In this document: positions 6,901-7,265 of the stretch, piece by piece
Position numbering within the stretch: the first letter of the stretch is position 1
How the letters are laid out: each line of letters begins with the position of its first letter
Assembly: GCF_003790525.1 (NCBI RefSeq)
Contig: NZ_CP033635.1
Source: Escherichia coli
Lineage (GTDB): Bacteria; Pseudomonadota; Gammaproteobacteria; Enterobacterales; Enterobacteriaceae
Length of the DNA stretch: 64,000 nt
Strand: one strand, 5' to 3'
Translations under genes and position numbers: made by a program
Notes under the pieces: generated by a model
Databases searched by the model: none
What the model was told of the DNA's origin: nothing
Seen by the model: only the letters and a program-made list of their open reading frames with translations

Positions 6901-7265
6901 ACCATAGACAACATGAATATTAATGTTACTATCTGGTTGAGACTGTTGATAAAACGTAAAAAGGAATGCTCTGTTCCTGCAACTGAACAGGCGTGAAACG
7001 CTATCCAACAGGATGGATACCGTTTTGTCAGCCAGTTTTATAGATCACACTTATGAGTATGCGTGTTTCATTTACGGCCAGGAATGCTGATGATGACAAC
7101 ATTACTACCCGTTTTCACTAAGCCTTCCCCATTGGCGCTCAATGCTCTGCGCGCTGGTCGTATTTGCCGTTTCCTTCTTATCCCGGATGGAAGAATCCGC
7201 TGAACGTCGTTCGGCGGCAGTTGTAACACGCGTCGTTTGCTTACAGGGATTATGGCGGGTCGATT

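Follow-up and report, generated by a model that had tools for sequence, protein, structure and literature searches.

A conserved structured leader around yhiY as a candidate translation-coupled Rho attenuator of the Escherichia coli yhiI-rbbA-yhhJ operon

The small gene yhiY of Escherichia coli is embedded in a conserved, probably structured and previously undescribed leader of approximately 175 nt (7059–7233) that precedes yhiI; positions refer to the window, i.e., the whole 64,000-nucleotide stretch of E. coli DNA that was analyzed. The predicted elements of this leader, the helices P1 and P2 and a hairpin at the yhiY stop codon, appear to be common to Escherichia, Citrobacter, Salmonella, Klebsiella, Enterobacter, Raoultella, and Kluyvera. 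Judging from the anatomy of the locus, we lean modestly towards yhiY being a cis-acting leader ORF, the translation of which would modulate Rho-dependent attenuation ahead of yhiI-rbbA-yhhJ. As a more tentative proposal, possible rather than probable, the leader as a whole could be a translation-coupled Rho attenuator of the operon, perhaps sensing translation status or an antibiotic.

Identity and start codon of yhiY

A sequence-only reading of the window had described a 39-codon ORF in front of yhiI and suggested that it might encode a regulatory leader peptide or have arisen by chance. The sequence and a program-made ORF list agree with its outline: the ATG cluster at 7084–7095 contains in-frame ATGs at 7084, 7090, and 7093, AGGA occupies 7080–7083, and the ORF stops with TGA at 7201–7203. 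Read from 7084, the frame encodes MLMMTTLLPVFTKPSPLALNALRAGRICRFLLIPDGRIR (39 aa), and in the ORF list it is open further 5' to a GTG at 7063 (46 aa). The distance to yhiI, given as about 60 bp, measures 62 nt from the TGA to the yhiI ATG (7266). The 365-bp leader holds as the intergenic distance between yhiJ, which ends at 6900, and yhiI, whereas the transcribed leader, counted from a start near 6939, is approximately 327 nt long. The coding features are as follows.

7090..7203, plus strand: yhiY coding sequence, 37 codons and TGA, encoding MMTTLLPVFTKPSPLALNALRAGRICRFLLIPDGRIR (RefSeq WP_001296785.1, K-12 b4790)
7084..7086, plus strand: first ATG, the earlier-proposed start, at zero spacing from AGGA and not conserved
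7266..8333, plus strand: yhiI, encoding an HlyD-family membrane fusion protein, first gene of yhiI-rbbA-yhhJ
From 8330, plus strand: rbbA, overlapping yhiI by 4 nt

This ORF is the annotated, validated, and already known small-protein gene yhiY. An exact-sequence look-up of the 37-aa peptide returned 'Protein YhiY' (YHIY_ECOLI) as well as 'MULTISPECIES: protein YhiY'. The gene lies on the same strand as yhiI, directly upstream of it, and the K-12 layout is identical, with the same yhiJ–yhiI position, frame, stop, and protein; the DNA differs from that of K-12 by one synonymous base and zero indels. Annotation of yhiY was found in 59 of 60 sampled E. coli genomes, and the ORF has been part of GenBank, UniProt, and EcoCyc-derived annotation since 2019; by itself it adds nothing new.

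The functional start is the ATG at 7090, two codons downstream of the one proposed earlier, and the product accordingly has 37 rather than 39 residues. RefSeq, published ribosome peaks, and conservation concur in this correction. The retapamulin/Onc112 mapping that had been suggested as a check was already published: judging by how the Onc112 and retapamulin peaks are spaced, Weaver et al. 2019 assigned initiation to the middle one of the three AUGs. AGGA is separated from ATG 7090 by 6 nt, versus 0 nt for ATG 7084. In the alignment, the latter is replaced by ACG in Citrobacter, Salmonella, and Pseudocitrobacter and by TTG in Klebsiella, and the second and third ATGs are conserved; ATG 7084 is probably not used as a start.

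Translation of yhiY is documented beyond initiation. SPA-tagged YhiY was detected (Weaver et al. 2019), and the intact protein has been seen by mass spectrometry (top-down, DIA, and PRM) in several conditions, at approximately 1000–3000 copies per cell. The length of the ORF does not exceed chance: when the leader downstream of the start was dinucleotide-shuffled, an equal or longer ORF appeared in approximately 44% of trials for E. coli and in 21–48% for the leaders of other species. Given these rates, length was dropped as evidence, and yhiY is regarded as a gene because of the published experiments and the comparative pattern. Non-significant length is also what speaks for a chance ORF without a biological role, a reading that is refuted by the published translation data and to which we give practically no weight: start-site ribosome profiling, tagging, mass spectrometry, and the near-universal annotation exclude it, and the ribosome-binding site and start are kept in seven genera.

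Promoter and transcribed leader

6905..6932, plus strand: sigma-70 promoter of the yhiY-yhiI-rbbA-yhhJ transcript (promoter scan; TAGACA, 16-nt spacer, TACTAT, TG extension)
6939, plus strand: transcription start, 7 nt past the −10 hexamer, inferred from a cloning primer
6933..7035, plus strand: lineage-specific insertion of 103–104 nt in the 5' UTR (alignment)

The promoter upstream of yhiY is common to yhiY and yhiI-rbbA-yhhJ, which form one transcript. Its hexamers are those of the RpoD-holoenzyme 'constitutive promoter' reported for yhiI-rbbA-yhhJ (PMC3946193), and the pattern TAGACA-N16/17-TA[GC]TAT is kept in Escherichia, Citrobacter, Salmonella, and Klebsiella and also in Hafnia. The start at 6939 is placed by the end of primer JW10219, which begins with GAGACTGTTG and sets the first position of the 'entire 5' UTR' fragment of Adams et al. 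The ends of the insertion are imperfect terminal inverted repeats (CTGG...CCAG), and it is predicted to fold into a long hairpin. It occurs in 4282 of 5426 E. coli genomes and is absent from E. albertii, Escherichia sp. E1V33, and a minority E. coli haplotype. Dispersal as a mobile element was not supported, the insertion being single-copy in every carrier genome.

Premature termination between yhiY and yhiI

7223 (K-12 3630645), plus strand: major RNA 3' end, Rho-dependent, 43 nt before yhiI (Term-seq, Adams et al.)
7201 (K-12 3630667), plus strand: second RNA 3' end (Term-seq, Adams et al.)
7096..7190, plus strand: C-rich, G-poor tract in yhiY, candidate rut (composition)

The K-12 coordinates can be transferred to the window because the two sequences differ by a single base without indels. 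The major 3' end lies 20 nt past the yhiY stop codon. In the Term-seq data of Adams et al., obtained in LB at OD 0.4, reads across this position drop from 762 to 101 without bicyclomycin (7.5-fold) and from 792 to 351 with it; the Rho score of 3.34 is significant, and the intrinsic-terminator score of 2.14 is under the cutoff of 3. A fusion carrying the yhiI 5' UTR and ORF was more than 2-fold up in the rhoR66S mutant (Adams et al. 2021), and a Rho termination region was also called inside yhiI (Adams et al.). A stable yhiI 5' UTR fragment has been seen in Salmonella, too. Adams et al. 2021 list the yhiY-yhiI pair with other uORFs that have an RNA 3' end close by, as a possible case of regulation. 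The regulatory-leader idea is plausible and already in the literature as a candidate; the literature searched yielded no data on yhiY start-codon mutants. An intrinsic terminator after yhiY was rejected for E. coli: the promoter/terminator scan found none in 6800–7400, and the stop-codon hairpin (hairpin B, below) is followed by CAGUUGUAAC.

Approximately 87% of transcripts end before yhiI in LB although yhiY is clearly translated, which means that translation alone does not prevent termination; a tna-type model, with release or stalling at the stop codon, therefore fits equally well as masking by ribosomes. The 3' end at 7223 may also be an exonuclease-trimmed end shielded by hairpin B, and not the true termination site.

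The tract at 7096..7190 is the sole stretch of its kind in the leader, with C/G up to 2.0 and 18 YC dinucleotides per 78 nt. The C bias is kept in 19 of 19 species with a long uORF though the sequences are unrelated, with C/G of 1.3–2.5 in the uORF body versus 0.36–1.25 upstream and 0.43–0.93 in yhiI. Kluyvera has neither a long uORF nor a C-rich tract. By composition, the tract is a candidate Rho loading site.

Structure of the leader RNA

7059..7070, plus strand: P1 5' strand, AUGCGUGUUUCA (alignment, RNAalifold, register test, pair counts, single-sequence folds)
7222..7233, plus strand: P1 3' strand, UGUAACACGCGU, at −44 to −33 from the yhiI ATG
7073..7081, plus strand: P2 5' strand, UACGGCCAG (RNAalifold, duplex search, register test, single-sequence folds)
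7154..7162, plus strand: P2 3' strand, CUGGUCGUA (same evidence)
7170..7193, plus strand: hairpin A, within the last 11 yhiY codons, with the 3' end 7201 located 8 nt downstream
7197..7217, plus strand: hairpin B, 9 bp and a 3-nt loop, with UGA 7201–7203 in its 5' arm (fold)
7243..7262, plus strand: conserved block ahead of the yhiI start, ACAGGGAUUAUGGCGGGUCG, with hardly any variation over 15 sequences

The comparison covered 24 enterobacterial leaders, and the P1 register test was run in 24 leaders. The P1 5' strand is part of a block of about 50 nt (roughly 7056–7105) that is nearly invariant across genera. P2 joins the yhiY Shine-Dalgarno, which its 5' strand overlaps, to a conserved CUGG island in the otherwise variable middle of the uORF (codons 22–25). 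Folding the E. coli and Klebsiella leaders as single sequences gave both helices independently, with modest z-scores of −1.35 to −2.1. In hairpin A, 96% of cells are paired over 15 sequences, including one covarying pair (A-U / U-A / U-G). Hairpin B likewise has 96% of cells paired, versus 10–45% with partners slid, and five of its nine pairs vary with pairing kept, including G-C/G-U/A-U. Covariation is limited, as most changes are wobble and one full compensatory change occurs in P1; shuffle controls were not significant for hairpin B (44/500) or P1 (97/500). P1 was not found in Hafnia, where the candidate 3' segment aligns with the block before the Shine-Dalgarno and the fold z-score is +0.7. 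Searches of Rfam returned no match for the E. coli leader (Rfam 15; RefA5 reached 13.2 bits against a gathering value of 91, E = 7.2) or the Salmonella leader.

The block at 7243..7262 likely includes the yhiI ribosome-binding region. Sequestration of that site was set aside, the predicted pairing consisting of only three invariant pairs with weak G-U pairs.

CsrA-like motifs are present before yhiI (ACAGGGAU) and in the loop at the yhiY Shine-Dalgarno (CAGGAAU). CsrA binding is at most a tentative lead: the motif is no more frequent in the window than chance predicts (3 found versus 3.06 expected), and no paper linking CsrA to yhiI was found in the literature searched.

Conservation of the RNA and of the peptide

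The start and stop regions of yhiY are conserved at the nucleotide level, and the Shine-Dalgarno with the double ATG is the best conserved part of the leader. Between these ends, lineages differ by 8-codon indels and frame changes. In the Klebsiella group, the uORFs extend 67–131 nt into yhiI; in Kluyvera, the uORF is cut to 3–4 codons; and Hafnia carries at the same position a 50-codon uORF with an unrelated peptide, its stop lying inside an imperfect hairpin that is followed by a U-tract. The C. freundii group uses another frame that ends in a TAG 1 nt past the conserved TGA, within the same hairpin. There, a second ORF, beginning at the conserved ATG further upstream, retains an E. coli-like C-terminus, ending FLLIPDGISR, and the C-terminal peptide may thus be conserved. 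The frameshift in E1V33 comes down to a C5-versus-C4 homopolymer difference in a draft assembly and could reflect an error in sequencing; together with the second C. freundii ORF, this weakens the argument that the peptide is irrelevant because its frame is not conserved. Leaders of Proteus, Providencia, and Morganella had no recognizable similarity. An alternative-frame ORF at 7053..7121 was rejected as an explanation of the 5' block, having no Shine-Dalgarno and no coding signature (4 synonymous and 5 non-synonymous changes).

Codon statistics bear on whether YhiY works as a protein. Variable sites are spread evenly over codon positions 1/2/3 (6/3/7, 20/23/21, and 8/16/10), and peptide pN/pS ranges from approximately 0.3 to 1.6, with values near 1 both for comparisons between genera and for the C. 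freundii group; by these measures, purifying selection on the peptide was not detected. Small proteins encoded next to transporter genes are a known theme, and YhiY could be a trans-acting protein, e.g., one that modulates the YhiI-RbbA-YhhJ transport complex or a different partner, in which case the 3' end would be the leaky terminator of an independent small gene. The accumulation of intact and tagged YhiY described above speaks for such a role, as do the retention and annotation of the gene in nearly all E. coli, a pN/pS of 0.29–0.70 within Escherichia, and residues 1–11 and 25–32, which are invariant among E. coli variants. However, variable sites show no third-position excess, the middle of the peptide is hypervariable, and its frame and, in Hafnia, its whole sequence change between lineages; the invariant ends do not vary at any of the three codon positions and match RNA helices in location, and the peptide contains no stretch long enough for a transmembrane helix. 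We consider a trans-acting protein unlikely.

A sequence-specific arrest peptide of the TnaC, SpeFL, MdtU, or ToiL kind appears somewhat less likely still. Stalling in response to a ligand or antibiotic, at the N-terminal MMTTLLP.F or near the C-terminal IP(D/E)G..R-stop, would then block Rho or remodel the RNA. The peptide does carry suitable segments: an invariant MMTTLLP is shared by Escherichia, Citrobacter, Salmonella, and Pseudocitrobacter, and the ending FLLIP(D/E)G with Arg-stop is kept in four genera and reappears in the alternative C. freundii ORF. The stop codon moreover lies in a hairpin directly before the Rho-dependent 3' end, and mdtU and toiL are E. coli precedents for the combination of uORF and Rho. 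Yet both segments are invariant at synonymous sites as well and overlap RNA elements, namely the ribosome-binding region and hairpin A; their conservation can be explained without the peptide because nucleotide-level constraint suffices. The Klebsiella group, Kluyvera, and Hafnia lack the motifs yet keep the leader, and the peptide shows none of the known stalling motifs, such as a polyproline run.

Constraint on nucleotides could also mean that the folded leader RNA is itself the regulator, with P1, P2, and the hairpins forming a binding site for a protein, a small RNA, or a ligand, with yhiY translation as a tolerated by-product. P1 and the 5' block are indeed kept in Kluyvera alongside its 3–4-codon uORF, the same architecture returns when divergent leaders are folded one by one, and an ORF of this length arises in approximately 40% of shuffles of the low-A leader. 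Set against this are the exceptional conservation of the Shine-Dalgarno and double ATG, the robust translation in E. coli, and an ORF of at least 37 codons that is open in 22 of 23 non-Kluyvera block-bearing leaders despite indels and frame shifts, the C. freundii group having gained a new stop at the same place; in addition, fold z-scores are modest and Rfam holds no counterpart. An RNA-only role is quite improbable in our assessment. Overall, the comparison speaks more for a role of translation as an act than for one of the peptide sequence.

A proposed model of translation-modulated attenuation

We hypothesize that the leader ORF acts as follows. Most transcripts stop approximately 20 nt past the yhiY stop codon, partly via Rho, as the published data indicate. 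Rho would load inside the ORF, where the composition points to the sole C-rich, G-poor, and poorly structured stretch. Translating ribosomes would cover this stretch and, on reaching the UGA, melt hairpins A and B, such that the frequency and extent of yhiY translation could set the share of polymerases entering yhiI. P2, a helix identified by comparison, might gate yhiY translation by sequestering the Shine-Dalgarno, and the long-range P1 might close the domain once polymerase has moved beyond 7233. What matters is probably not the peptide sequence but the occurrence of translation and the position at which it stops.

Comparison with known attenuators

The closest known systems share parts of this arrangement. 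In mdtU-mdtJI, spermidine relieves premature Rho termination, and this relief requires that the uORF be translated (Adams et al. 2021). Both mdtU and yhiY are small translated uORFs (34 and 37 codons) from the same ribosome-profiling screen; each precedes a transporter operon within a long 5' UTR, is followed by a Term-seq 3' end, and showed Rho dependence in a reporter. For mdtU, however, a start-codon mutant and the inducer spermidine were tested and the C-terminus of MdtU is conserved in at least 17 genera, whereas conservation of the yhiY peptide is inseparable from that of the RNA.

The uORF toiL, upstream of topAI, senses ribosome-targeting antibiotics; an RNA structure occludes the downstream ribosome-binding site, and Rho terminates inside the downstream ORF (Baniulyte and Wade 2025). 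The yhiY leader resembles it in combining a uORF, leader structure, and premature Rho termination, including the Rho region inside yhiI. In toiL, stalling relieves an occluded downstream site, whereas P2, the clearest helix of the yhiY leader, covers the Shine-Dalgarno of the uORF itself, and the three invariant pairs predicted at the yhiI ribosome-binding site do not support its occlusion.

The leaders of tnaC and of the amino acid operons show further parallels. At tnaC-tnaA, the ribosome stalls at the stop codon of the leader peptide and blocks adjacent Rho access. Like tnaC, yhiY is a short leader ORF with its stop codon immediately upstream of a Rho-dependent termination zone; TnaC, in contrast, has conserved sensor residues and tryptophan as inducer, and the C-rich tract of yhiY is inside the ORF, not after it. 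With trpL, hisL, and leuL, yhiY shares a translated leader ORF before an operon and a hairpin overlapping the ORF end, but its peptide has no run of regulatory codons, and it lacks an intrinsic terminator, termination being Rho-dependent. A U-tract after the stop-codon hairpin, as in trpL-type leaders, is found in the Hafnia leader only.

Significance

Any link of yhiY to the ribosome association of RbbA would be pure speculation. The pattern of a conserved start and stop, a freely varying peptide, a C-rich body kept across species, and an ORF enclosed by P1 and P2 leads to a concrete, testable model. Should the model be confirmed, E. coli would gain a further uORF/Rho attenuator beside the few already described, and a clean case in which the act of translation, rather than the peptide, is conserved. 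It also bears on the control of the poorly understood yhiI-rbbA-yhhJ operon.

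Identity and translation of yhiY

The upstream ORF (uORF) that the sequence-only reading had put forward as a possible 39-codon leader peptide is an already known gene, annotated in RefSeq as follows:

7090-7203, + strand: yhiY, "protein YhiY"

Its 37-residue product is exactly YHIY_ECOLI, present on more than 1000 contigs in an exact-sequence look-up, and its K-12 counterpart is b4790 (YP_010051203.1). All the described elements were found in the sequence: three in-frame ATGs (7084, 7090 and 7093), AGGA at 7080-7083, TGA at 7201-7203, a 62-nt spacer between the uORF stop and the yhiI ATG (7266), and a yhiJ-yhiI intergenic region of 365 bp. 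The ORF is real and translated, as annotation, profiling and mass spectrometry attest, but it starts two codons downstream of the proposed position. AGGA lies 0 nt from ATG 7084 and 6 nt from ATG 7090, and the first ATG is replaced by ACG in Citrobacter, Salmonella and Pseudocitrobacter and by TTG in Klebsiella, while the following two are conserved; spacing and conservation, which both favour ATG 7090 over 7084, are consistent with a start at the second AUG.

Region 6850-7300 is 100% identical to E. coli strain SMS-3-5, and K-12 differs from the window by one synonymous base and no indel across 6880-7290, so that published K-12 coordinates transfer directly. Initiation data of the suggested kind, from retapamulin and Onc112 start-site mapping, are already published: yhiY was discovered (as ORF9) by ribosome profiling with both drugs, and the strongest candidates of that study were SPA-tagged, with 36 of 38 detected (Weaver et al. 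2019). In a 2025 proteomics study, the native protein was seen by three mass-spectrometric approaches (top-down, DIA and PRM), with an abundance of roughly 1000-3000 molecules per cell. ORF length was dropped as evidence for yhiY; dinucleotide-preserving shuffles downstream of the start gave an equally long or longer ORF in 44% of cases for E. coli and 21-48% for other species, since the leader is A-poor and stop codons are rare. A literature search found no paper testing the function of yhiY, and some novelty lies in its possible regulatory role and in a conserved leader structure without prior description.

Promoter and transcript ends

A promoter scan placed the following site upstream of yhiY:

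6905-6932: promoter-like site TAGACA-16-TACTAT with a TG extension

Identical hexamers are listed as an RpoD-holoenzyme-bound promoter of yhiI-rbbA-yhhJ (Shimada et al. 2014), and comparison of leaders indicated that the promoter is conserved out to Hafnia. Directly past the -10 hexamer lies a 103-104-nt segment (6933-7035) with imperfect terminal inverted repeats and a long hairpin fold, with the appearance of a 5' UTR insertion; as it abuts the hexamer, the transcription start falls inside it. The "entire 5' UTR" cloned by Adams et al. (2021) begins at window position 6939, 7 nt past the -10 hexamer. Of 5426 complete E. coli genomes, 4282 carry one copy of the segment each; a minority E. coli haplotype is without it, as are E. 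albertii, Escherichia sp. E1V33 and other genera. A query with the whole yhiJ side (yhiJ, 5278-6900) also returned 4282 genomes, and strains GPEC606 and R9, which have the minority haplotype, lack yhiJ and yhiL and carry yhiM directly upstream; the stretch from yhiJ to yhiL is therefore a variable island adjoining the yhiY promoter. In strain E423 (locus positions 492-1298), an IS1A insertion deletes the yhiY start and promoter, leaving a remnant annotated "hypothetical protein"; as rbbA of this strain also carries an internal stop, the locus appears to be decaying.

Term-seq in LB at OD 0.4 mapped a 3' end to K-12 position 3630645 (window 7223), 43 nt before yhiI, across which the read count goes down from 762 to 101 in the absence of bicyclomycin and from 792 to 351 in its presence (Adams et al. 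2021). This site carries a "uORF" flag, a significant Rho score (3.34) and an intrinsic-terminator score of 2.14, below the cutoff of 3; a separate part of the same supplementary table gives a second 3' end at window 7201, and a Rho termination region is also called within yhiI. In the same study, rhoR66S raised a yhiI 5' UTR+ORF reporter more than 2-fold, and yhiY-yhiI was placed among validated, uncharacterised uORFs with a 3' end at most 200 nt away. Our terminator scan of the E. coli leader found no intrinsic terminator, and the leader is not of the classical intrinsic-terminator attenuator type. The yhiI stop and rbbA start overlap by 4 nt (ATGA, 8330-8333), the usual layout for translational coupling.

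Conservation of the leader

Loci of yhiI were fetched from 80 species and their upstream regions analysed. The start context AGGA-N6-ATGATGAC recurs in Escherichia, Citrobacter, Pseudocitrobacter, Salmonella diarizonae, Klebsiella, Enterobacter and Raoultella. Leaders consist of a block of some 50 nt that hardly varies and covers the ribosome-binding site and first seven yhiY codons, a hypervariable middle whose indels give 37 versus 45 or 46 codons, and a conserved 3' block that includes the stop codon. Conservation of the reading frame is mixed. Four genera keep the E. coli frame, with the ORF ending ..IP(D/E)G..R-TGA. In six genomes of the C. freundii complex a common 1-nt deletion puts the 3' block in another frame, with a TAG stop 1 nt past the conserved TGA, and Escherichia sp. 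E1V33 has a +1 shift with a stop 23 nt farther on, which may be a sequencing error in a C5-versus-C4 homopolymer of a draft assembly. In Klebsiella, Enterobacter and Raoultella, the uORF runs from the conserved ATGATG without a stop before yhiI (78-98 codons), crossing the yhiI start and ending 67-131 nt inside that gene in another frame, whereas Kluyvera retains 3-4 codons only.

Codon analysis of three frame-consistent groups revealed no protein-level constraint, variable sites at codon positions 1/2/3 numbering 6/3/7, 20/23/21 and 8/16/10. Within Escherichia, where each class comprised 4-6 differences, the pN/pS of yhiY came to 0.29-0.70; comparisons between genera gave 0.54-1.06, and those in the C. 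freundii group 0.59-1.64. Amino-acid polymorphisms of E. coli YhiY concentrate at residues 12-14, 17, 22-24 and 33-35. The start and stop positions are conserved; the peptide appears not to be. A caution comes from the C. freundii group, where a second ORF from a conserved upstream ATG (window 7059) stays open for 55 codons and ends FSFLLIPDGISR, so that a C-terminal peptide may be conserved there.

Two further ORFs overlap yhiY:

7053-7121, + strand: alternative-frame ORF MSMRVSFTARNADDDNITTRFH, overlapping the invariant 5' block and the yhiY start
7068-7286, - strand: antisense 72-codon ORF spanning all of yhiY and the spacer, without RefSeq annotation

The former has neither a Shine-Dalgarno sequence nor a coding signature; the "conservation" of its N-terminus MRVSF[TKP]AR[NI]ADDD in every genus reflects the invariance of the underlying block, and in the C. 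freundii group this ORF spans 55 codons, closing with FSFLLIPDGISR at the conserved TGA. The latter is probably a by-product of stop-poor composition.

Hafnia alvei retains the promoter and a related 5' block. In the position of yhiY it carries a uORF of 50 codons that has an AGGA of its own and encodes an unrelated peptide:

2210-2478 of the H. alvei yhiI locus: leader with promoter hexamers TAGACA-16-TAGTAT; uORF at 2297-2449

Its UAG stop lies within an imperfect hairpin followed by UUUUUUGUUUUU. A simple terminator scan did not flag this hairpin; the leader is possibly an intrinsic-terminator version of the attenuator proposed for E. coli. The AT-rich leaders of Providencia, Proteus and Morganella share a block, TGTGATA[AC]A[TA]G[CT], about 200-250 nt upstream of yhiI, which may be a regulator binding site, and otherwise have no similarity to the E. 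coli leader.

Base composition and RNA structure

Rho loading sites are defined by composition, not sequence. The sole C-rich, G-poor stretch of the leader lies within yhiY (C/G up to 2.0, 18 YC per 78 nt, centred near 7145), and the yhiI start is G-rich (C/G 0.34-0.6). The bias recurs in the uORF body of all 19 long-uORF species (C/G 1.3-2.5, 15-27 YC per 90 nt), whose sequences are not alignable, and is missing from the flanks and from Kluyvera. A bias of this kind is what a Rho loading site would be expected to show; the composition of the yhiY body is rut-like.

Folding, with RNAalifold on 15 full leaders for the two longer-range helices, P1 and P2, gave these elements:

7059-7070 (AUGCGUGUUUCA) with 7222-7233 (UGUAACACGCGU): P1
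7073-7081 (UACGGCCAG, overlapping the Shine-Dalgarno sequence) with 7154-7162 (CUGGUCGUA): P2
7170-7193: hairpin A, in the last 11 yhiY codons
7197-7217: hairpin B, whose 5' arm contains the UGA stop

Aligned without gaps, the two P1 strands pair at 10-11 of 12 positions in each of the 24 leaders, the 3' strand invariably lying 44-33 nt ahead of yhiI, and the nine core pairs are 100% paired in 18 distinct sequences versus 18-64% with the strands slid; only 0.6% of 44-nt window segments pair equally well with the 5' block. The 3' strand, which the long Klebsiella-group uORFs cross, differs between E. coli and Klebsiella at no more than 6 positions, with core changes solely A-to-G opposite U, and one pair is seen as U-A, U-G and C-G. 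Since U accepts both A and G, the shuffle control was not significant (97/500). Kluyvera has lost the uORF and retained P1, which explains the conserved 5' block there. P1 is well supported by conserved complementarity and weakly by covariation.

P2 is fully paired (9/9) in E. coli and E. albertii. Most leaders of Citrobacter, Salmonella and Pseudocitrobacter have GGCCAG:CUGGCC as its core, in an unchanged position, and in Klebsiella the helix reads UAAGGC:GCCUUA, with a C-G to A-U change. Across 15 sequences, hairpin B is paired in 96% of cells versus 10-45% with partners slid, and five of its nine pairs vary with pairing kept (G-C, G-U and A-U among them); its shuffle control was not significant (44/500). 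Hairpin A is 96% paired with one covarying pair. The 3' ends at 7201 and 7223 fall 8 nt past hairpin A and 6 nt past hairpin B, respectively. Single-sequence MFE folds, made with no comparative input (z-scores -1.35 to -2.1), recovered P1, P2 and both hairpins in both E. coli haplotypes, and P1, P2 and one 3' hairpin in Klebsiella oxytoca; P2 and the hairpins are plausible as modelled. No Rfam family matches the leader. Two GGA motifs resemble CsrA sites. One, ACAGGGAU at 7243-7250, precedes the yhiI ATG by 16 nt and is unchanged across 15 species; the other, CAGGAAU at 7078-7085, occupies a small hairpin loop at the yhiY Shine-Dalgarno sequence. Their frequency in the window is that of chance, and a literature search found no link to CsrA.

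A candidate uORF- and Rho-dependent attenuator

Published results establish that yhiY is translated, that most transcripts end just past it and that Rho contributes. The comparison presented here shows yhiY enclosed by conserved predicted helices, one covering its own Shine-Dalgarno sequence, with its stop codon in a conserved predicted hairpin and a rut-like body. We propose that ribosomes on yhiY would shield the putative Rho loading tract and melt both hairpins, A and B, while P2 would gate yhiY translation. P1 would form only once polymerase has passed 7233, and RNA terminated at 7223 is without its 3' strand. Termination in LB is strong despite yhiY translation, which speaks against simple masking. 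The data would fit equally well if, as in tna, the outcome were decided by release or stalling of the ribosome at the yhiY stop.

The E. coli uORF/Rho systems mdtU-mdtJI and toiL-topAI, together with tnaC, would be closest in mechanism; the likeness to tnaC follows textbook knowledge. In those systems dependence on uORF translation and an inducer are demonstrated, whereas yhiY is likened to them by anatomy and, unlike theirs, its peptide conservation is not separable from RNA conservation. In the proposed attenuator, the efficiency of yhiY translation or the dwell of ribosomes at its stop would set the share of polymerases reaching yhiI; in the Klebsiella group the uORF, if translated, would have an interplay with yhiI initiation quite unlike the E. 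coli arrangement.
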